In this document: positions 8,110-64,000 of the stretch, in pieces | Position numbering within the stretch: position 1 is the stretch's first letter | Layout: each line of letters starts with the position of its first letter | Assembly (NCBI GenBank): GCA_013265495.1 | Contig: MU057991.1 | Span: 186,001 to 250,000 of the forward strand | Direction: 5' to 3' | From: Vicugna vicugna | Lineage: Eukaryota | DNA length: 64,000 nucleotides | Notes under the pieces: generated by a model | Database searches by the model: none | Told to the model about the DNA's origin: nothing | The model's input: the letters and a program-made list of their open reading frames with translations, nothing else | Program-made: the position numbers and the translations under genes

Positions 8110-8626
8110 TGTTACCGAGTCCAGACTCGTTCCTGCTTGCCGCACGACAGGCCAGTAAATCGGAAGACGAGGTGTTGGGGCAAGGAATAGCGACTGTATT
8201 TGGGAAGCCAGCAGACGGACAGGATGGCAGACTGCTGTCCTGGAGAACCATCTTCCCCAAGTCAGAATCCAGGCTCCTTTGATACTAAAAAGGGGAGGGG
8301 GTGTGGTTGGCTGTTGCAAACTTCTCTGTGCAGGAATCCTTTGTTTCTGCAGCTGTCCCGGGGCCAGGTCACGGTGCCTCTGCAAACCTCCAGCAAAACA
8401 AAGGTTATTTTCTGTTCTGCAACTTGTTACCTTTATAGGAGTGCGAAGGTGTCAACATCCTTCAAGGGCAGAGCCCCGACGGGCTGTCCTGTCTGTTTCA
8501 GGCTAAAGGCAACGCTGTTTCAAAAAAGGTGCAGAGTCCGCAAGACTGAACCCAGAAAACAGGGCACAGGGTTAAAGCCAAGGGAACAGGTCTCCCGTGG
8601 AGTCAGGTTTGTCCTTTTCTGTTACA
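8110..8626 (-). mobile_element. ERV1-type solo LTR, family B
   Basis: TG...CA ends, 4-bp TSD cctg; homologous to 38652-39150. Confidence 0.88.
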
Positions 8627-18546: not shown

Positions 18547-18676
18547 GACCTCGACTGGCATTCCTGCTTGCAGGTGGGGGTCATGCTGGCCTCCAGCCCC
18601 AACTTGAGCTGATGACAACGACGTGGGGGTGGAGTGTCTGCGCTCCCGAAACGAGATCATCGCCGACTTGGATGGG
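18547..18676 (+). pseudogene. ADCY1: ADCY1 pseudo-exon 16
   Basis: DLDWHSCLQVGVMLASSPN / DDNDVGVECLRSRNEIIADLDG (cf. [41 protein letters not shown]); about 17 nt missing, TGA at 18610-18612. Confidence 0.92.
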
Positions 18677-19274
18677 GTAAGGGCCGCCCCACTGCCCTGA
18701 CTCCCTGGGGCCTGAGGGCGCCTGGCAGTGCAGCCCCCAGTGGCTGTGATTGTGCCTGCTCTCTGCGGATGGCAGGGGGTGGGGCACATGCACTGTGTCT
18801 CCTTGGGAGTCCCAGCCGACCTTGGCCTTTGAGGAAGGGGCTTTCCCTGGGGTTGGGGAGGATGGGTGCTGGGCTGGGAGGCAGGATGCTAGCGCCTGTG
18901 GCCTACCTAGGAAATGCTGGGCTCAGGTGGGTGGCCTCACCTAGAGGATGGATGGCGGGCCCCTCTGTACCCTCCACCCCGAGTCCCGTGTCTGTACGGG
19001 TCTCCCTCCCTCGCTGGGTGGTTGTGGGCTCAGGTGTGAGAGACGGTGTGTTGTGCATGTCTCCCCTCCCAGCTCCTCTTTTAAATGCCTTTGCAGGCGC
19101 CCCTGAGGCTGGGTTCCTCAGTTCAGCCCCAGAACTTGTCCTGTAGCCAAATGAGGAGGACACATTGCTTCCCAGCACGTGCCCATCTGCTCCGCAGTGG
19201 CTCCTGGTGGCTGTACAGGGCAGTGACTTGTCTAAAATGTCATGTAATGTTTCACGTTTGCATTTCAAACAAGG

Positions 19275-19373
19275 CTCATAGACACAGACCTTTACAAGGA
19301 CCTGGAGAAGTTCAACACCGTTGGGAGGACCTACGAGGCTGCCGTGGGGCTGGCGGCCACGGCGGGGACCCAG
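19275..19373 (+). pseudogene. ADCY1: ADCY1 pseudo-exon 17
   Basis: LIDTDLYKDLEKFNTVGRTYEAAVGLAATAGTQ (cf. LMEKDFYKDIEKIKTIGSTYMAAVGLAPTSGTK); KIKTIG motif destroyed; AG displaced by 1 nt; gtgagt donor. Confidence 0.92.
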
Positions 19374-19853
19374 GTGAGTGCTGGCCGGCTGTCCAGGTGT
19401 GCCCCGCTCAGGACTGGGTCCCAGCTCTGCCCCCAACTGATCAAGGGGCCTGCTGGCTGCACTGAGGCCAGCAAGCTCTCAGCCCTGCTCGTTCCCACTC
19501 ATTTCCCCGAGCTTCGGGGCCTGGACTCCAGCTCTCTTACTGAACATTTAGGGCCTTCCCCACGGCCGTCCCCCACCTCCCCCTTCACAGCACAGATGGA
19601 GCCTCAGGGGACAGATCCCTGGCCCTGGGTGGGGGCACAGCCCTCCCCGCTGCTGGGGACCTTCACTCAGGAGAACGGGCCTCCCCCAGGGACGGGGTCC
19701 CCCTCACTCGGCCCAGACCTGCCCTCGTGCACAGAAGGGGTCCTGGCCTGGCCCTGCGCCGACCCCCTGGGTGTCCTGGGGGCCAGGCGGGGGCCGAGTG
19801 GCCCAGCTCCAGGCTGGGATCGGCCCTGCCCCCTCCCCCGGTGCCTGGACAAG

Positions 19854-19861
19854 TGACATCA
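19854..19861 (+). promoter_or_regulatory. CRE-like element TGACATCA upstream of the candidate ORF
   Basis: One mismatch from TGACGTCA; about 70 nt upstream of the first ATG. Confidence 0.35.
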
Positions 19862-20048
19862 CGAACTCCAGAGCCCAGCTGGGGGAACCATTTCCTAGAA
19901 CCCGGCTGGCCTCCCCTCCCCCGCCCAACAGATGGTCGTCAGGGACCTGTTTACCTGGAGACGGAACGCCCCGCAGGGTTCCGAGCGGCCAGTGGTGACA
20001 CAGAGGACCCTGGCCTCAGAGGCAGAGAGCTGTGGGGCCCTGGCAGCC

Positions 20049-20597
20049 ATGGGGGGCCTGCTCCCTGCCCCCTGGGCCCCGTCCCCCCGGATGCTGGAGC
20101 GCCTGGGGGGCGCCCTGCTGCTGCTCTGGGAGAGCCTGACCCCGGTGCTTCCCTGGGGGGCCCTGGTGTGCGTGGCAGGGCTGCTGTTCCTAATACACAG
20201 ATGGTCCTCCTCCCACAGCGGGGAGACCCCAGGCGAGGGGCGCTCTCCCGACGACGGGGACGCCGTGCCAGGGGCTGAGGGTGCCGGGGACCCCGCGGGA
20301 AAGGCTGGCGGGAGCCCGGCGCCCCCGCCCCCCCAGGGGCGCCGGGAGCCCTCCGGCCCCCGAGCACCAGCGCGCCCCGGGGAGCAGCCTATGTGTCCAC
20401 GATGCCGGGAGCTGCTGGCCCAGTACGTCGCCACATGGAGGCAGCGAGTCACAGAGAAGGAGGAGGAGAAAGCAAGGCTGCTGGAGGCGATCGCCAGGAG
20501 GGAGCGGGCCCTGCAGGACACAGTCACCCACCTGGAGGCCCTGGCTGCGCACCTGCTGAGCGCCCCCCGCCGGCCCCCCGCTCTGACCCGGGTCTGA
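20049..20597 (+). CDS. Candidate intronless gene: 182-aa membrane-anchored coiled-coil protein (221 aa if the ATG at 19932 is used)
   Basis: gcagccATGG Kozak; hydrophobic segment LGGALLLLWESLTPVLPWGALVCVAGLLFLI; Pro/Gly linker; CPRC; charged heptad helix RQRVTEKEEEKARLLEAIARRERALQDTVTHLEAL; downstream ATTAAA. Confidence 0.55.
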   Translation: MGGLLPAPWAPSPRMLERLGGALLLLWESLTPVLPWGALVCVAGLLFLIHRWSSSHSGETPGEGRSPDDGDAVPGAEGAGDPAGKAGGSPAPPPPQGRREPSGPRAPARPGEQPMCPRCRELLAQYVATWRQRVTEKEEEKARLLEAIARRERALQDTVTHLEALAAHLLSAPRRPPALTRV

Positions 20598-20822
20598 GCC
20601 CTGCAACCACCGCACCCCGTCCGTGTGGGTGTCCAGGGGGTGCGCGACCATCCAGCGCTCCCTCGTTTGTCCTGGTGGTGCCTCGAGGCCACAGTGTCTC
20701 CTGGGAGTGGGGCGTTGTCCCTCGCCGGGAGAGTGTTTAAATGTCCATGTTTTCTCTAAAGTTCCCACTTCCTCCATTGAAACCCTTAGGAATGTAGCGT
20801 ATAGTGTTGTATTTGGGTGGAG

Positions 20823-20828
20823 ATTAAA
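20823..20828 (+). terminator. Poly(A) signal ATTAAA for the candidate ORF
   Basis: Ends an AT-richer ~225-nt 3' UTR-like stretch; followed by GT-rich sequence. Confidence 0.45.
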
Positions 20829-23119
20829 TGCCCCTGTGACCTGAAGCATCCTCTCAGTGTGTCCTGCTAGAGATGTGTGAGACGATGGGAATTCTCTGCA
20901 CATCAGGCCGCTGTTGACAACGTGGAGGTAACTGCTGGGTATTGACCTGAGCAAATTTGGGGTCATTTCAAAACCTAAACAAAAAACCCCCCAAAACAAA
21001 AGACATCATTAAAAAAGGGGAAAAAAGAAACTGGACAAAAAGAAAAACTTAAGCAAGAGGATCCCATTCTAACTACGTATTATTTCTATTAGCTTAGTCT
21101 TAATTTATAGTTTGTCCCAAGTTCATAACAGTTCTGTACTAAATTCATAGATTAGAAAAGTTTGAGTTTTTGCAACCACTGTTTGCTGTGTTGTCATTTC
21201 TTGTTCACCTCCCTTGTCTTGTTTCAGATGGTTTGTCATTTAGCATTTCTAAGTGTAACAATTAATACATTTTCTTTTGATTCGAAACACACACACCAAA
21301 GGCTGCAAGCGGGCTGCTGTCCTCACCCCCACCCGGGGCCTGGCAGGAGGAGGGGAGTGGGGTCCTCTGAGCCGGGGAGGGGTCTCTCAGGGGTTTGCGT
21401 GGAGCCCTGGGTGCTGGCCCGGGGTGGGGGTCATCACAGAGATGGAGGAGGAGGACCGAGGGGCTGTGCTGGGCAACTGCGGGGTCAGGAAGAGGACTGA
21501 GAAGACGCAGAACCTTCTGGTGACCCTGCCGCCCTCGGGCACTGAGTGAACCCTGGTGACAGCTCTGCAGGAGAGCCCTGCGGAATCTTTGAGAATAGGA
21601 GGGTGACCTCTGGGAAAGCTGCTTCCCTGAGGAGCCGGGTGTGGAGTCAGACACGTGTATCTGGACTCCACGTGGTTCCTCCCCCTGAATCCTGGGGTCC
21701 CACCTCCCAGCTGCTCCCCCAGCAGGGACTCCCTGGGCAGAGGGAGGGGCTGGGGCGCAGGGGGAGGATTCCCGCGTGTGATGCACTTGCCCCCTGAGCA
21801 GAGCCACTCGGAGGTTCCCCGTGGGGACGCGAGGTGAACTAGGTTTCCTCCAGTGAGTGCACATCCGTGGGAGGAGCAGACTCGGGGACGCAGGTGCCCA
21901 CCAGTGTGGTCTGGACACGCCCTGCCGGGCCCTGCGTGGCTCTCCGTCTGTGCCCGCAGCAGACTTGGTGGGCGGGAGGTCAGGGAGGGCTCCCTGGAGG
22001 TGGCGGCCCTGAGGAGGGGTAGGATTTCCCACCAGCGCTCTTCACCCGCTAAGGGGCCCGGGAGCCCCTGGAGAACTTGCTACAGAGCAGATCCTGACGC
22101 CCAGGTTCTTGGCTGGTGTGACCCTCAGTGGTCCAGGAGGTGATTTTCCAAGCCGGGAACAGCTGGATTCACTAGGGTCCTGAGATGATCACGGGGGGAG
22201 GTCATAGGGGCAGGGAAGGCTCTCTGGGGCGCAGCCCAGGCACAGCCTGGACGCGTGTAGGGCCTGGCGGGGCAGAGGGAGGACTTCTGAGGCCCATGGT
22301 GCCATGGTACTGGACCCCAGTCCAGCACGGCCGATGGAAGCCATGGACGTCACACTCTTGTTCTGAGGGCGGGAGGGGCCCTGGGAGCCGGGCCCCGGGC
22401 CAGCCACCTGTCGCCCGTGGCAGACGTCCCATCGCAGAGCCAGCCCAGAGCAGCAGTGGGAGGCTGCAGCGGCCTGGGGACGTCTGGCTGCGTCCCAGCC
22501 CCACTGTATCTTGTCACCCACATCTGAGCCGCATCCCCGCGTCTCTGCCCCAAGCCCGTCCCCCTTCCCACGTCCCTCGCTGCCCCTCAGAGCAGAAATG
22601 CCTTCCCCCAGCTGCTTACACCAGGGCCAGCCTCTGCGGCCAGCGCCGTCTCCGCCCCCGGGCAGCGGGGGCACCGTGTCCACTTAGTGGCTTCTGTGCC
22701 CCGACAGGCGGCGCAAAGCCAGACGCGGGGAGGGACGGCGCGACCCCGCCTGCCCGGGGCTCCCAGGCCGCACCTGCTGGTGCTGAGGCCCGAGGCCGTG
22801 CGTTCAGCTGGGCAGGGCGCTCCGTGCTGGGGATTTAAGGTGAGTGAGGGTGTCCTGTGCTGCCGCCCTGGTGAGGCCACCAAGTGCCCCTCCTCCTCCC
22901 GTCTATGCTGGGGAAGGTCTGGGGGCTGCGGTCACGGGGTGCGTGGATCACAGGGTAGCTCCGCTGCTGATCATCCATGAGCCCTGAGAGGCGGCTCAGC
23001 CCCCGGCTCCCCAGCGTGAGGCCTGCGGTGTCCCAGAGCTGCTGTCTGCGTCCATTCTGTTCCAGGCGGTTTTCAAACACGCCTGCAAGGTCTCACACAC
23101 GCCTCCCATCCAGGGCTGG

Positions 23120-25759: not shown

Positions 25760-26900
25760 GGGGCGCTGCGGGGACCACGGCCTGGGCAGCTGGCGGTGCA
25801 GTGGCTCAGGGAGGGGCCCCAAGCCGAGCCTGTGGGGCTGGCAGGCCCTGAGAAGGGGGTGCTGGATTTGGGATTCACGAAGGAAGAGCTCCGGCAGGAA
25901 CCCCAGGCTGTGCGGGAAAAAGGAGTGAATGAGGGTTCCTGGGGTTCTGACTTGACAGTGGGGAAAGTCGGTGCCACTTGCTGAGATGGAACCGGCAAAG
26001 GGAGAGGAGGGGAGTTGGTTGAAGGGGCAAAACCCACACAGGGGCCAGCAAGACCTCCCAGGCAGGGCCACTGCCTTCCTGCTTTTGGGCTTCTGTAAAA
26101 CAGCTTGCTTCTAGGAAAATGAAAATGACCCCTAAAATTCCATTGGTTCCCAAAAGCTCACTCCTGATTGGTCCATTTCTAACACCTCATTTGCATACAG
26201 GGCAAACTTAACCGACACAGAGAGGGCCCAGAGCTTGGAGTGGTAACTCCTCCGGGCCCGCCGACGTCATGAGCCTGGGTTCTCCAACGCTCCGAGCATC
26301 GCTGGGTCTCTGGACAGGATTCAGGTTGCTGTCACAGGCAAGAGTTTTGCTTTGATTTGACCAACCTGGAGACCCTGCCAGACATCTGAAGAAGCATCGA
26401 GATATTTGAGTTTGGAACGCAGGGCAGCACGCTGGGGCTGCAAATAGATGTTTAATAATCGTGAGTATTTGGATGTGAGTAAGGCCCTGGGACTGGTGAG
26501 ATGGCCTGGGGGCGACTACAGAGGGAAGGGAAAACTCAGCGTCGAGGGCAAGGAGCCGGGGTAGACCAGCGAAGCCAGAGGGAGAGGAGACACTTGCAGG
26601 AGAAAAGTCTGGCGCTGACACGAGAGGATGGGGTCCCGAGCACACAGGGAGGGGCTGCCTCACGAAGGAGCAAGTTTGGTTCAGCAGCTGCCCCGGCAGG
26701 ACAGGGGGCGGGTGGCCCCGGGCGCAGGGAGCTGAGCACACGTGACGGGGGGAGATCGCGGCCTCGGTGGACTCGGGGAGGTGGGGGGGGCCTGGACGGA
26801 GAGTGAGGGGGTCGCGGGGCGTTCCAGCTGGGAGCGGCGAGAGGGAGCAAAGGGGTTCTGGAAGCGCGGCGGGATCCCCGAGTAGGGCCGCCCCCGGCAC
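25760..26900 (-). mobile_element. L2 fragment split by LTR family A
   Basis: Purine-rich L2-like motifs (gctgagatgg..., gagacc...gacatc..., ggggctg..aatagat) continue on both sides of the LTR. Confidence 0.55.
26020..26336 (+). mobile_element. ERV1-type solo LTR, family A (internally deleted), inserted in an L2
   Basis: tgaaggggcaaaacc...gttgctgtcaca; one CCAAT/octamer module. Confidence 0.85.
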
Positions 26901-31384: not shown

Positions 31385-31692
31385 GTTCCAGAGTCCAAAC
31401 TCGTTCTGCTTGTCGCACGACAGGCCGATAAATCGGGAGACGAGGTGCTGGGGCAAGGAGGAGCGACTTTGTTCGGAAAGCCGGCCGACCGAGAGGATGG
31501 CAGACTGACGTCCTGGAGAACCATCCTCCTCCGGTCAGAATTCAGGCTCTTTTTATGCTAAAAAGGGGAGGGGGTGTGGTTGGTTGTTGCAAACTTCTCC
31601 GTGCAGGAATCCTGTGTTCCTGCAGCTGTGCCCGGGGGTCAGGTCATGGTGCCCCTGAAAACCTCCCAGAAGACAAAGGTTATTCTCTGCTT
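31385..31692 (-). mobile_element. Truncated LTR, family B
   Basis: Matches the 8115-8415 portion of the full copy. Confidence 0.8.
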
Positions 31693-34686
31693 CACATTTG
31701 TGCCCTGGGCATCAGTAGAGGACGGAGGACGCTCCCTGTAGCTCCCGGGAGGCCGGATGCCCTCACTGGATGCCAGGCAGTGGCCCCCCTTGGAGGCATG
31801 GGAACGCCACGCCTGACCAGGGGGACGCCCCCATCGCACCCGTGGGCAGTGTGGGCGGCAGGCCTTCTCCGTGCCCTGTTTTCACACCCTGGGGCCAGGC
31901 CTGGAGAGATCTGTCCATTCAAGGCTCTTCCCCTGCCCCTGTCAATGACCCGCTGCAGGAAACCTACAGACTCCGGGGTTTGAAGCCGCCTGACTGCCTG
32001 CCCCACGAAAAGCAAGACATGCTTCTTCCCCGGGCAGGTCCGGCTCCCCGCCAGCTCTTCTGAATGTGCAGTGTTTCCTTCCCTGGAGCCTGCTGCCTCC
32101 TCTCCACCTGGACGTGGGGGTGTCTGGGCCTCCCTGGCTAGCCGGCCTCAGCCCTGTCTTCCCAGACTGTCCCCACCTCACACATCTTTTTCAGGTAATT
32201 TTTATCTTCCCGATCATCCCTTTGCTGGTCTAACAAGGCTTCTCCTTGGAACCTGCTCCCGGTACCGGGGGCTGCAGGTGACAGCTAGTGTCTGTCCTCC
32301 TATTTTTCTGCGACGTGTGTGGCTGGGCACGCGGCCACCAGCCCAGACTGCTTTTCCCCATGAGGGTGGCTGTGTGCGGACCCGGCAGCCTGGGAGGCCA
32401 GCGAGCGTGAACTCAGCCCCTGAGCCGCATCCTCAAGGACAGGAGGCCCACCCTTTCCTGCCTTTGTCTGCTTTTCGCCCGGAGCGTGGATGTTGTGGCT
32501 GGACGTAGAGCAGCGATCTTGGACGGGGAGTTAAAGGCTGTGTGCTGAGGACAGCAGGTGAAGCCAGAGAGGAAAAACACGGGTCCCTGAGGGATGGTTC
32601 AAAGCTGTATTTAAATTTTAAAAATTTCAAAGTTGTCTTTAAAAAAAAAAAGTTAATAACTTATATACATGGGAGAGTCCCAGAAAAACTGAGTTACTTT
32701 TAAAGTCTTCCTAACTGCTTTTTTTCTCCATGTATTATGTGTATAACTGGGGGAAAAAAAAACCCTTAAATTCCTATCATTTGAGGCTTGTTTAAAATTT
32801 TTACTTTCTTAATAAAGACTTCCATTTTCTCATATCAAAGAAAATAAATAAGCTAGTTGATCATTTGACTCCAAATGTTCCACTGTTTTGATTTTTAAAA
32901 AAAAGGATATTGAAGTACTGGCTGCAGAGGTCTGATTTGGACCCCTGATTTGTCTCTAAATATTCAACTCTTTTAAAAAAAATTTTGCTTTTTCGTATTC
33001 TTTTCCATTATGGTTTATTACAAGATACTGACCGTACTTCCCAGTGCTCCACAGTACGACCTTGTGGTTTATCTGTTTTATATAGTGGTTTGTATCTGCT
33101 AATTCCAAACTCCTAATTTATCAACCTCTCCACCCTCTTCCCCGCCGAGTAACCATAAGCTTGTTTTTTATCTGTGAGTCTGTGTCTCTTTTGTAAATCA
33201 ATTCATTTGTGCCATAGATATACAAGCCTTTAATTAGCCTTGCATTTCACTGGCCCTGGTCTCCTGTAAATTGTCTGAGCTCCCTTGACTGTAAGGGAGC
33301 TTCTCCCGTGAGAAGGGAGAAGCGAAGGAGACAGGGATGGAGGGGAGGGTGCAGAAGGTGGCGTTCCTAGAGCAAGAAGAAATAGTCGGTCCTTTTCTGT
33401 GTTCTTGCTTCTCAGAAAGCTGATAACGTGTTTTTGTCTAGGGTGAGCGGAGAAGCCTGGGCCTTCTTCTCATTTCTGACAGAACACAGACAAAACGAGA
33501 CATGCCTGGGCCCAGCCCCTTGGACGTGGTTCAGAGCTCAGGCCCAGGGCTCCTCGCCTGGGCGGGCGGGAGTGGGGCTGGGGACAGAGGCTGTCCCTTG
33601 CTGGTCTCCAAGTTCTGAGGCCTAAACTGGCTGGGATCATTTGCGGGGACGTTGGCCACGGTCCTCGATGGCGCCGGCCAGCCCCCGGATTTTATGATCT
33701 GCGAGCTCCTTTTCCCTGGTGAGATGTGGAGTGATCTGTTTTCCTGATCCACTTCCTTTAACCTTAAACTCGGGTCACGGACTGCAAGGAGGCCGCTCTG
33801 TGATTTGCTTGATGGTGAAACCAGAGTAGGGAGGCTCCTGCAGGCCTGAAATTCAGGGGCGCAAAATCCCAGCAAACCCCAAATAGGATTAAACGTCTGT
33901 TAGGAAGCTACACGAGGTCCTGGTTCTCTGGCTTCTTGATCTTTTTAAGCCAGTGAGGTCCCGTCCGATCCACAGAACCCCCCTCTTCCCAGCCTCTCAG
34001 ACTGAAAGATGATATTCTGTGATGTACAACCCGCTGCGCCGGCGGCCGGAGGCAGAGGCTGGGGACCCCGGAGAGCCGGCCGCGGGGAGGTAAGAGCTAC
34101 CTGCGCAGACTCGTGGGTCTGGCTGAGTGAGAGGCATGCTTGCCAAGGAGGGCCTGTGTGCATCTGTGAAAACTTCACAGGGAAGGTGGGGTGTGAGCTC
34201 AGCCCTCCAGGATGGGCGGGGTAAAGGTCAGCCCAGCGGGAGCTCGGCTCCTGTAGCGATGGAAACGCAAGACGGGAGATCCTTTGGGAGTGAGGGACCC
34301 GCATCCCATCAGGGACGTGAGAAGGAGCCGCCAGGGCTTGAGCCGCAGGAGGAAGGTGGGGGCTGAGCCGGGCAGCGAGCCGGCCTGTGCGGGGAGGGGG
34401 CCACGTGGCCCCGAGCGGGGTCCCAGCTTCCTGCCTAACTGTGCGCAGAGGTTTCTGGAAGTGACCTGGAGAGTCAGTTGACTTGGCAGTCTCAGGGCAG
34501 CTCCTTAAGGAAAGAATTTAAAATTCCATCACGGGCTGCACGCGTGTGGAAATCAGAACGAGCCGTCCTGCAGAAGAGGAGGGTCGGGGTGACGCCGGGA
34601 GACGGTCTCCAGGGGGCAGTCCCGGCACAATGGGAGGAAAGAGGCTCAGCCAGGCCCCCTGAGTGTGACAGTTCAGAACTCAGCAC

Positions 34687-35032
34687 TGTGACAGCAACCT
34701 GAATCCCGTGCAGAGGCCAAGAGACACTCAGAGGGTTGGAGAACAGGGGTTCATCACGCCCGCGGGCCCAGCGGAGTTAATGCTCCAAGCTCTGGATCCT
34801 GTCTGTAGGTTTACACAGGCTTTTATAGGGTTTTAGGTTTCAATTAAATTCATGCCGTATGCAAATGAGGTGTTAGTAATGGACCAATCAGGAATGAGGT
34901 TTTGGGAACCAGTAGAATTTAAGGGGTAAGTTTCGTTTTCCTAGAAGCAAGCTGTGCGCTGCACATCTCGGATCAGTTTTTGGGAACCAGTAGAATTTAA
35001 GGGGTAAGTTTCGTTTTCCTAGAAGCAAGCTG
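34687..35032 (-). mobile_element. 5'-truncated LTR, family A, fused to the PFAS retrocopy
   Basis: Reverse complement of family A; lacks roughly the first 80 nt. Confidence 0.85.
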
Positions 35033-36200
35033 TGCGCTGCACATCTCGGATCCGGCCCCCTGTGCCGGTGGCTGCACCACTGAAGGGCGGCTACTCCTGT
35101 GGGCAAGCTGTGGGTCTCTGCTGTGAAGACAGCATGTCTCGGCCCCTGACGTTGCCGAAAGCAGCTTGGCCGTGTGGGGTCCTTGGGCCGTAGGAGTTGG
35201 ACTCCCTTCCCATGGAATGCACGGCGGACACGTCCGTTCCAGAGCTCCCTTCCTTCTGGGGTCTGTGCTCGCCCCGCCGGAGCCTGGAGCCTCCCATCCC
35301 CCGAGTCAGAGGTCACCCCGGCCTAGGGTACAGCCCATCTGCTGTTGTCACAGAACTTGAGGACGTTGCTGGGGCTGGATGCTGCCTGGGTGCTCATGAT
35401 GGACTCAGACAGGGAGTGTGCCAGCTCCTGCCCATCCACGTGGAGTCGGCCCTTGAAGACCCAGTGTCGGCTGTGTCACTGCTGGACTGAGCCAAGTCGA
35501 AGGCCTCCACGGTGCTGGGGTTCCGCTGCAGCTCCCGGAGGCGCTTGGTGTAGAAACCCGGGTCCCAAGAGTCCGGGGCCAGACCTGGCTCTGGTTGGCT
35601 TTCTCCAGGGCAGCAGACTGGCCCTCGGCCAGTATGTCGACTGGGCCACCTAGCGGGGCTGGGATGCAGCCAAGGGAGAAGCCCTGGATGGGTCGGGGGA
35701 ATTGCTGCTCCGTCATCCAGTCATGCAGGGTGGCCAGAGCGACGGCGTCCATCTCAGCTGAAGGGGGCGGGCAGCGCCGGGTCCTCTCCACGCGGTCCCC
35801 AGCCCCCAGCCCCCAGCCCCGCGGCCTGGCACACTGACACGATGCTGGTGGAAGTCGGGGTGGAGAAGGTCAGCCTGGGCCCGACCTCCAGCCACAGGTC
35901 ACTGGGGCAGGGAAGGAGCCAGGACCCCTGGGCGACAGCGTCCAGTAACCAGGGGCAGCCAGGTCCTCGGCACGTGGGGAAGCATCACCTGTCCAGTTCA
36001 CGCTGCAGCACAGCTCGGTCTTGGTGCCCTGCAGCTCTGGCGGTTCCTCTTGCAGCTTCCTTTGAGGGTCCCCACAGGCTGCTCCCTCGTGGCCAGAGGG
36101 ACGGACATAGATGTGCAGGACTGAGGACATCTCTGCAGACACTGTTGCTGGAGAGGCAAGCTAGGTTCGCGGTAGCTGCTCCTGCAAGTCCCCGGGTTCC
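35030..36200 (-). pseudogene. PFAS: PFAS (FGAM synthase) semi-processed retrocopy, 5' part only
   Basis: ATG at 36130: MSSVLHIYVRPSGHEGAA...; ALATLHDWMTEQQFP; ALEKANQ; HSRHWVFKGRLHVDGQELAHSLSESIMSTQ...VLKFCDNS; LLRPKDPTRPS...VFTAETHSLPTG...RIRDVQ. Frameshifts and deletions; one 117-nt intron-like insert. Confidence 0.93.
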
Positions 36201-38651: not shown

Positions 38652-39150
38652 TGTGACGGAAAAGAACCAATCTGACTCCGTATGAGACCTGTTCCTTTGG
38701 CTTAACCCTGTGCCCTGTTCTCTACTCTGCACCTGAAACAACGTTGCCTTTAGCCTGAAATGCACAGGGGAGCCCATTGTCAAGGCTCTGACCTTTAAGG
38801 ATATTAACATCTTCGCACTAATATAAAGGTAACAAGTTGCAGAATAGAATATAACCTTTGTTTTGCTGGAGGTTTGCAGGGGCACCGTGACCTGGCCCCG
38901 GGGGACAGCTGCAGGAACAAAGGATTCCTGCACCAAGAAGTTTGCAACAGCCAACCACACCCCCTCCCCCTTTTTAGTATAAAAGGAGCCTGAATTCTGA
39001 CTTGGGGAAGATGGTTCTCCAGGACACGAGTCCCCCATCCTCTCGATCTGCTGGCTTTCCCAATAAAGTCATTATTCCTGCCCCAACACCTTGTCTCCTG
39101 ATTTATTGGCCTGTCGTGCGGTGAGCAGAACAAGTTTGGACTCGGTAACA
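38652..39150 (+). mobile_element. ERV1-type solo LTR, family B
   Basis: TG...CA ends, 4-bp TSD gaac, TATAAAA and AATAAA inside. Confidence 0.9.
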
Positions 39151-44899: not shown

Positions 44900-45319
44900 T
44901 GAAGGGGCAAAACCCACGAAGGGACCAGCAGGACCTCCCAGGCAGGGCCACTGCCTTCCTGCTTTTGCGCTTCTGTAAAACGGCTTGCTTCTAGGAAAAC
45001 GAAACTGACCCCTAAAATTCCATGGGTTCCCAAAAGCTCCCTCCTGATTGGTCCATTTCTAACACCTCATTTGCATTTACCCCTAAAATTCCATTGGTTC
45101 CTGAAGGCTCACTCCTGACTGGTCCATTTCTAACACCTCATTTGCATGTGGCATGAACTCCATTGAAACCTAAAACCCTATAAAAAAGTGTGTAAATCTA
45201 CAGACGGGGTCCAGAGCTTGGAGTGGTAACTCCTCTGGGCCCGTGGATGTAATAAACCCGAGTTCTCCAAACCTCTGAGTGTTGCTTGGTGTCTCAACAG
45301 GACTCAGGTTGCTGTCACA
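44900..45319 (+). mobile_element. ERV1-type solo LTR, family A
   Basis: TG...CA, TSD ccta; 71-bp internal tandem duplication. Confidence 0.9.
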
Positions 45320-50401: not shown

Positions 50402-50814
50402 TGAAGGAACAAAACCCATAAAGGGGCCAGCAAGACCTCCCAGGCAGGGCCACTGCCTTCCTGCTTTTGCATTTCTGTAAAACGGCTTGCTTGTAGGAAA
50501 ATGAAACTCCCCACTGAGAGTCCTTTGGTCCCCAAAAGCTCACTCCTGATTGGTCCATTTCTAACACCTCATTTGCATTTACTTCTAAAATTCCATTGGG
50601 CCCCCAAAGCTCTCTTCTGATTGGTCTGTTTCAAACACCTCATTTGCATATGATGGAAACTTCATCAAAACCTAAAACCCTATAAAAGCCTGTGTAAACC
50701 TACAGCCGGGGTCCAGAGCTTGGGTCCTCTGGGCCCATGGGGGTGATAAACCTGAGTTCTCCAGCTCTCCGAGCGTTGCTTGGTCTCTCGACGGGATTCA
50801 GGTTGCTGTTAACA
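50402..50814 (+). mobile_element. ERV1-type solo LTR, family A
   Basis: TG...CA, TSD ctta(t); 71-bp internal duplication. Confidence 0.88.
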
Positions 50815-63638: not shown

Positions 63639-64000
63639 CGAAGGGGCAAAACCCACAAAGGGACCAGCAAGACCTCCCAGGCAGGGCCACTGCCTTCCTG
63701 CTTTTGTGCTTCTGTACAATGGCTTGCTTCTGGGAAAATGAAACTTACCCCTAAAATTCCATTGATTCCCAAAAGGTCACCCCTGATTGGTCCATTTCTA
63801 ACACCTCATTTGCATCTACCCCTAAAATTCCGCTGGTTCCCAAAAGCCCACTCCTGATTGGTCCATTTCTAACATCTCATTTGCATATGGCACGAACTTA
63901 ATCAAAACCTAAAACCCTATAAAGGCCCGTGTAAACCCGCAGACGGGGTCCAGAGCTTGGAGTGTTAACTCCTCTGGGCCCGCCGGCGTGATAAACCTGA
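63639..64000 (+). mobile_element. LTR family A in EGFR intron 22, antisense to EGFR (runs off window)
   Basis: Same sequence as the 44900 copy, including the 71-bp duplication and TATAAA. Confidence 0.88.

Follow-up and report, generated by a model that had tools for sequence, protein, structure and literature searches.

A truncated, probably dispensable copy of a CTAGE5-like gene family beside an adenylyl-cyclase-like remnant in Vicugna vicugna

In the 64,000-nt stretch of Vicugna vicugna DNA analyzed here (the window), the open reading frame (ORF) at 20049-20597 is very likely a truncated duplicate from an intronless CTAGE5-like gene family. On balance, we favor the reading that this shortened copy was duplicated beside a cyclase remnant and is now a dispensable, decaying spare and not a new testis gene, the family itself being a likely offshoot of cTAGE5/MIA2. 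The evidence consists of homology to the family, two in-frame deletions in the linker, the absence of the second coil and the proline tail, and frameshifts in the two closest copies. The original prediction had described an intact, intronless transmembrane and coiled-coil ORF and proposed a lineage-specific testis gene or retrogene. Its observations were confirmed, the single exon stands and kinship to cTAGE5 is likely, but lineage specificity does not hold and a fresh retrogene is unlikely.

Translation from the ATG at 20049 to the TGA at 20595-20597 gave 182 amino acids with zero stops, and the start lies in the context GCCATGG; the open 182-codon frame and its strong Kozak start were thereby borne out. 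"Intact" holds for the open frame only, since about 320 of the roughly 500 family residues are missing. A second ATG in the same frame at 19932, absent from the original prediction, would extend the product to 221 amino acids. Its context is weak, and it is probably not the start, since family members begin at the Met of position 20049 in the alignment. The hydrophobic segment comprises residues 31-49 (Kyte-Doolittle 19-residue mean 2.07). In the predicted model it is followed by a Pro/Gly spacer (pLDDT 42-50) and by one charged helix of residues 117-171 (pLDDT 95-98 across residues 121-170), with CPRC at residues 116-119, so that hydropathy and model recover all the elements previously named. 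The model contains two N-terminal helices, and its membrane topology is predicted only; because its pTM is 0.33, only the helices are trusted. Both TGACATCA upstream and the AT-richer region with ATTAAA downstream were found as well, GC content falling from 0.74 within the ORF to 0.42 at 20721-20828. The ORF is a single exon, contiguous and collinear with its relatives and with no GT..AG among nine listed contig joints, and "intronless" holds for this locus. A frame of this length is in itself unexceptional in this DNA, as the window has 13 ATG frames of at least 182 amino acids where 40 local shuffles gave 5.2 +/- 2.0. It is homology and not length that places the ORF above chance. The features discussed below are as follows.

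19272..19373, + strand: remnant of an adenylyl-cyclase-like exon, followed by the donor GTGAGT at 19374 (eight of ten PDB matches are adenylyl cyclases)
19428..19438, no strand: candidate junction between cyclase-derived DNA and the CTAGE5-like segment (contigs of run X15, one each)
19530..20048, + strand: upstream flank co-duplicated with the gene, presumably including promoter and 5' region (contigs of 87-89% and about 95-97%)
19854..19861, + strand: TGACATCA, candidate CRE-like site, one mismatch from CRE (motif count)
19932..19934, + strand: upstream in-frame ATG of weak context (relatives start at the 20049 Met)
20049..20597, + strand: ORF P0001, very likely a truncated member of the intronless CTAGE5-like family (translation, homology, profile)
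20085..20216, + strand: N-terminal helix (residues 13-30) and predicted transmembrane helix (hydropathy, residues 31-49; model, residues 36-56)
20274..20280, + strand: probable scar of the in-frame 126-nt deletion with GCTGAG microhomology (shift against P0002; loose ends and joints at 20279-20291)
20391..20408, + strand: probable scar of an older 12-codon deletion, which makes CPRC (alignment to relatives)
20397..20561, + strand: predicted single charged helix, residues 117-171, the family's first coil (model; 43-54% identity to relatives)
20598..21300, + strand: 3' region common to close copies, ATTAAA at 20823 and 21008 (contigs; C-terminal queries negative)

Homologues were searched with phmmer in 1.84 billion representative proteins (E up to 0.001). 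Six of the seven matches are genuine (P0002, P0004, P0005, P0007, P0008 and P0009); P0006, a tandem-repeat protein, was dropped as a repeat artefact. P0008 bears the NCBI name "ER export factor CTAGE5-like" from Equus caballus and is recorded for two Equus species, while the P0009 cluster includes "CTAGE family, member 5-like" from Camelus ferus. The NCBI name CTAGE5-like is thus attached to two of these six homologues or to members of their clusters. P0005 (502 amino acids) clusters with a Cervus fragment, and a search started from it led to five further relatives whose clusters hold reindeer and yak records. The deer, reindeer and yak members are 479-521 amino acids long, and the long members overall 465-521. 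The named records, all from automatic annotation, are XP_023485919 and XP_070453704 of Equus and EPY79975 and EPY79977 of Camelus ferus; further records, likewise annotated automatically, are CAI9709397 and CAI9176021 of Rangifer, MXQ82234 of Bos mutus and the fragment KAF4020673 of Cervus. The family is thus recorded from deer, reindeer, yak, horse and camel, and the term "lineage-specific" had to be given up. The contigs of the Camelus ferus proteins P0016/P0009 (EPY79975, EPY79977) are equal in length (2,449,314 bases), which suggests that these CTAGE5-like copies form a tandem cluster. In the open-licence full texts searched, the ungulate CTAGE5-like family was not found described.

A profile was built from six ruminant proteins with the ORF left out. 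The ORF scored 75.7 bits in two stretches (residues 1-104 and 121-171). As controls, 500 shuffles of the protein reached at most 2.8 bits and the reversed protein -9.6, and the other 1384 of the 1385 six-frame pieces of the window reached at most 5.7 bits with the same profile. On this sequence comparison with shuffles and window pieces, the ORF is gene-derived and not lineage-specific. The homology is collinear and in one frame from the first Met through the anchor, the linker and the first coil, with 34-51% identity to family members in the alignment; compared with the ruminant members, residues 1-52 are 54-60% identical, the linker 26-32% and the coil 43-54%. The ORF and the intronless CTAGE5-like proteins have the start Met, the N-terminal helix, the PW-led transmembrane segment, the linker frame and the first coil in common. 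In contrast to the long members with their 465-521 amino acids, the ORF has 182, lacks the inter-coil linker, the second coil and the proline tail, and has two linker deletions of about 42 and 12 codons.

Pfam gave no family for the ORF from either start, and nothing above the cut-off for eight relatives or for 52 plus-strand pieces chosen from 167 in the first 1-22 kb. Since even the cyclase-like exons were missed, the sensitivity of Pfam here is low. Foldseek with the ORF model yielded no match, and the ESM Atlas returned for the ORF a single weak plant cluster at 0.75, which is uninformative, with low recognition. The exact ORF protein is absent from 15 billion sequences, and no locus was confirmed in scans of JGI metagenomes for loci with the flanks.

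To compare other copies, contigs from four of 24 listed sequencing runs (DNA run X15; RNA runs X1, X2 and X11) were aligned to 19200-21200 at 85% likeness; the comparison covers 32 of the 106 pieces, with 40 of the 248 differences and 12 of the 38 indels. In X15, contigs 98-99.7% alike chain across 19200-20351 and cover 20407-20731 and 20800-21107. The frame is gap-free over 20043-20351 and 20407-20597; records 17 and 19 together carry six substitutions beyond those listed, and 20352-20406 lies outside the listed pieces, so that this sample may carry a nonsense allele. The two gaps of record 19 fall behind the ORF stop. Record 17 spans the scar of the 126-nt deletion without a gap. By these contigs, a second DNA sample, distinct from the window, confirms the locus, its neighborhood and the deletion. 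On the same 2 kb X15 has 53 contigs, 42 of which are less than 99% alike. Taken with the contigs that cover the flank at 87-89%, this indicates a multi-copy family that was duplicated together with its flank.

The contigs over the upstream flank fall at 87-89% (X1 records 1-2, X2 record 22, X15 record 16) and at about 95-97% (X1 record 3, X11 record 8, X2 record 23). Further upstream, the PDB matches of the cyclase-like exon have E values of 0.24-0.98, and the name ADCY1, which follows the original prediction, is provisional. Of the ADCY1 remnant said to adjoin the ORF, the cyclase-like character was thus weakly confirmed, while a second candidate cyclase exon gave no match. At 18547-18680 lies a segment that presumably represents another cyclase exon; its frame is interrupted by a stop at 18610-18612. 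About 60 nt past the cyclase-like exon, one X15 contig departs from the window after 19433 and another joins there; with one contig each, this is only a hint that 19433 may be the join between two duplicated segments. TGACATCA occurs four times on both strands of the window against 1.4 expected, and sites within one mismatch of CRE number 29, or one per 2.2 kb. Judged by these counts its frequency is near chance, and control by CREM, or in the testis, is putative; the motif occurs in none of the CREM papers among the matches listed. An A-rich tract lies at about 20968-21050. An interspersed element of 300-420 nt that contains an internal tandem unit of 71-78 nt occurs five times in the window (26021-26349, 34674-35052, 44901-45319, 50403-50813 and 63640-63999), and a second element family lies at about 8133-8626, 31385-31689 and 38652-39149; both presumably represent solo LTRs.

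Compared with the family, the ORF lacks about 42 codons after residue 77 and 12 codons near residue 115. Both deletions are in frame, and the family frame is kept throughout. By diagonal shift against P0002 the first deletion amounts to 126 nt. It lies at GCTGAG, which also flanks the additional stretch in the RNA-seen copy (see below), and was probably mediated by this microhomology. None of ten aligned relatives has Cys at either CPRC column; by this alignment, CPRC is a deletion scar unique to the ORF copy. Behind the coil, the ORF has 10 residues as against 231-285 in five long members. C-terminal queries from eight relatives gave no match above shuffled background (0 of 8) in the three forward frames of 20598-21400, and hence the second coil and the proline tail are missing from the locus and do not merely lie behind the stop. 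Among the short forms, P0008 ends 37 and P0007 68 residues past the coil. A copy of about 85% in the RNA runs X1 and X2 has 328 letters where the window has 171 (20560-20732), which suggests that camelid-like copies lost their C-terminal half in steps.

A copy of about 94% is present in three RNA runs from three studies, two of which are labelled reproductive system. Its contig depth over the gene is 158-188, 181 and 31, compared to about 10, 9 and 4-6 upstream, whereas the DNA depth of X15 is flat at 44-50; as contig depth is a poor measure according to the tool, this is a weak hint that the copy is transcribed. In this copy the long linker is retained (+118 nt), 27 nt are missing and 1 nt is added. 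Accordingly, X11 record 10 covers 537 window bases with 629 letters and X2 record 24 covers 498 with 590, each an excess of 92 nt between the 5' part and 20579, which puts anchor and coil out of frame; in X1 the copy is split over two contigs. P0002 differs from the ORF by +126, -1 and -7 nt before the coil (net +118) and by +1 and +5 after it, part of which could be gene-model error, and P0015 is likewise frame-shifted in its 5' part. Thus, the frame is not conserved in either of the two closest copies (the RNA copy of about 94% and P0002), which may be paralogues; frame disruption in relatives was one of the outcomes named in the original prediction as refuting it. No long RNA piece of the ORF allele is among the 32 of 106 pieces listed. 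The transcript of about 0.9 kb suggested in the original prediction is unsupported for the RNA-seen copy, which extends past the ATTAAA at 20823 to 21058 or beyond 21200. Position 20043, where RNA contigs start, was rejected as a transcription start because a DNA contig begins there too. The summed depth of DNA and RNA is very high at 20004-20070 (581 in X15 versus about 45 nearby), and eight DNA contigs have a common 2-nt gap at 20024; this segment is probably the conserved 5' end of many copies.

Signs of selection on the frame were also assessed. Of the 13 substitutions listed, two were set aside on account of the indel at 20409; the other 11 comprise eight replacement and three silent changes. 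They come from the 40 of 248 differences listed, against a frameshifted partner copy, and the ratio of 8:3 agrees with the site ratio of 2.44. Divergence is 5.4% in the ORF versus 7.2% in the 3' region (27/503 versus 30/415, p 0.27), and a second comparison gave 25/460 versus 40/552 (p 0.25). These tests are weak, and no constraint is visible in them. In simulations, this GC-rich frame gained no stop at 1.5-3% divergence in 55-74% of cases. If two to three indels are assumed for each lineage, the chance that a copy keeps its frame under neutrality comes to roughly 1 in 10. This is not a low value, considering how many copies there are and that an open frame had been chosen for the original prediction. 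Of the 44 members listed for the ruminant clusters, 20 have full length and the remaining 24 are pieces from the N- or C-terminal side, as would be expected of a birth-and-death family; the 44 are not independent loci, and some pieces may be contig ends or errors.

The family likely descends from cTAGE5/MIA2, judging from the automatic NCBI names, an ESM Atlas match and the architecture. The full-length relative P0005 maps at 0.94 to the TGO1 and "MIA SH3 domain ER export factor 2" (MIA2) clusters of the Atlas with 182-185 shared features, at a recognition of 1971, under the 2300 mark of the tool. Together with the CTAGE5-like names, this match lends support to the loose resemblance to cTAGE5/TANGO1 that had been pointed out before. 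A profile search (882-2515-aa proteins) found no MIA2 or TANGO1 among 7997 candidates, which is weak evidence, and a PDB profile search found no MIA2/MIA3 record. According to the passages cited, cTAGE5 comprises a signal anchor, a transmembrane segment, two coils and a proline-rich domain (PMC3128532), with a 38-aa lumenal stretch and one transmembrane pass (PMC5851698). Its second coil binds TANGO1 and its proline-rich domain Sec23/24 (PMC3128532, PMC5851698); the region of the first coil binds Sec12 (PMC4164946), via residues 61-115 directly behind the membrane (PMC4927275). Like cTAGE5 and TANGO1-short, the ORF would have a short N-terminus, a predicted membrane anchor and then a coil. Unlike cTAGE5, it is a single exon with a long disordered linker after the anchor, and it lacks the second coil (TANGO1 and Sec22 binding) and the proline-rich domain (Sec23/24 binding); the likeness is one of predicted architecture. 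Since these two defining domains are missing, the ORF is not classed as cTAGE5 proper. Moreover, its coil lies 65 residues from the anchor, whereas the Sec12-binding stretch of cTAGE5 adjoins the membrane (PMC4927275).

In primates, copies of CTAGE5 arose as retrocopies (PMC2394760), and the passages cited name CTAGE2, 4, 6, 8, 9 and 15 as CTAGE retrogenes (PMC7829582). The ORF family resembles these in being intronless, multi-copy and, as is likely, cTAGE5-derived. In contrast to the primate-specific retrogenes, the hoofed-mammal family is far more diverged and is found in several lineages, and the ORF copy appears to have been moved by DNA duplication. The primate CTAGE retrogenes are near full length and close to their parent.

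Other origins of the ORF are much less probable. A frame that arose de novo or by chance in GC-rich sequence would agree with the 13 frames of such length in the window and with the missing Pfam family, the low Atlas recognition and the missing fold match, but same-frame collinear homology from residue 1 to full-length genes of other orders speaks against it; the profile score of 75.7 bits against its controls refutes this explanation, which we regard as extremely unlikely. That the ORF is a decayed phosphoglycerate mutase fragment is practically untenable. The idea derives from one PDB sequence match (E 0.0069) at residues 91-170, a stretch that matches the CTAGE5-like family at about 45-50% identity, and the family profile finds no such match at E up to 1; both profile results, from PDB and from the ruminant-only profile, refute it. 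A recent cTAGE5/MIA2 retrocopy inserted in the cyclase remnant, comparable to the primate CTAGE retrogenes, is very unlikely, even though the single exon, the A-rich tract and the known primate retrocopies (PMC2394760) would fit. The nearest relatives form a divergent intronless family, with no MIA2 record or spliced parent among the matches, and a long Pro/Gly linker separating the anchor from the coil is characteristic of this family. Furthermore, about 500 nt of upstream flank are common to paralogue contigs, and close copies continue through the A-rich tract. A flank common to paralogue contigs of 87-89% points to duplication at the DNA level; the recent retrocopy is largely refuted by flanks and nearest relatives, and the fresh retrogene of the original prediction is unlikely for the same reason.

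It is possible, but in our view rather doubtful, that the ORF is a working short gene, encoding an ER-anchored single-coil protein of reproductive tissue that would bind its own longer paralogues or coil partners in the cTAGE5/TANGO1 system, would act as a decoy or spacer without a COPII link, and whose frame is kept by selection. The start, the anchor and the coil are kept and are better conserved relative to the ruminant members than the linker (54-60% and 43-54% versus 26-32%), although this conservation may predate the truncation. Both deletions are in frame, and the second DNA sample has the same frame, gap-free over the two intervals given above. The copy of about 94% is enriched over the gene in RNA with flat DNA, in two of three cases from the reproductive system, by a depth that is a poor measure; this RNA-seen copy (+92 nt) and P0002 are, however, both frameshifted, no long RNA piece of the ORF allele is among the 32 of 106 listed, and the exact protein is absent from the 15 billion sequences. 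Short anchor-plus-coil forms recur in horse (P0008), and P0007 is also short, but these forms end at differing places, as expected of random decay. In addition, a 65-aa disordered linker follows the anchor, as opposed to the Sec12-binding residues 61-115 of cTAGE5 at the membrane (PMC4927275). An even bolder and quite improbable proposal is that hoofed mammals express in the reproductive tract an undescribed, fast-evolving, intronless offshoot family of cTAGE5 whose members lose the COPII-binding half time and again. The ORF would then be a live camelid member with anchor and single coil, amplified in a cassette with cyclase remnants, and a germ-cell decoy or tuner of TANGO1/cTAGE5.

We return to the shortened, decaying spare copy as the preferred reading. 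An intron-free family of hoofed mammals would have arisen as an offshoot of cTAGE5/MIA2, and one copy would have been duplicated as DNA, with its upstream flank, next to the cyclase remnant. Its linker would have lost 126 nt by microhomology, and the spare copy may now be decaying with its frame open so far. Counting against this, the ORF lineage kept the Met, the Kozak context, the anchor and the coil while its sisters took several frameshifts. If translated, the product would be an ER-membrane protein with a short N-terminus and one cytosolic coil. As the parts that bind TANGO1/Sec22 and Sec23/24 are missing, it would not be expected to act as an export co-receptor and would at most bind coil partners.

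Overall, the ORF locus most likely adds just another shortened copy to a gene family with rapid turnover. The family, with its open ruminant members of 465-521 amino acids and its CTAGE5-like names in horse and camel, is more interesting than this copy. Should germ cells translate its short members, the TANGO1/cTAGE5 export system would have deletion mutants provided by nature.
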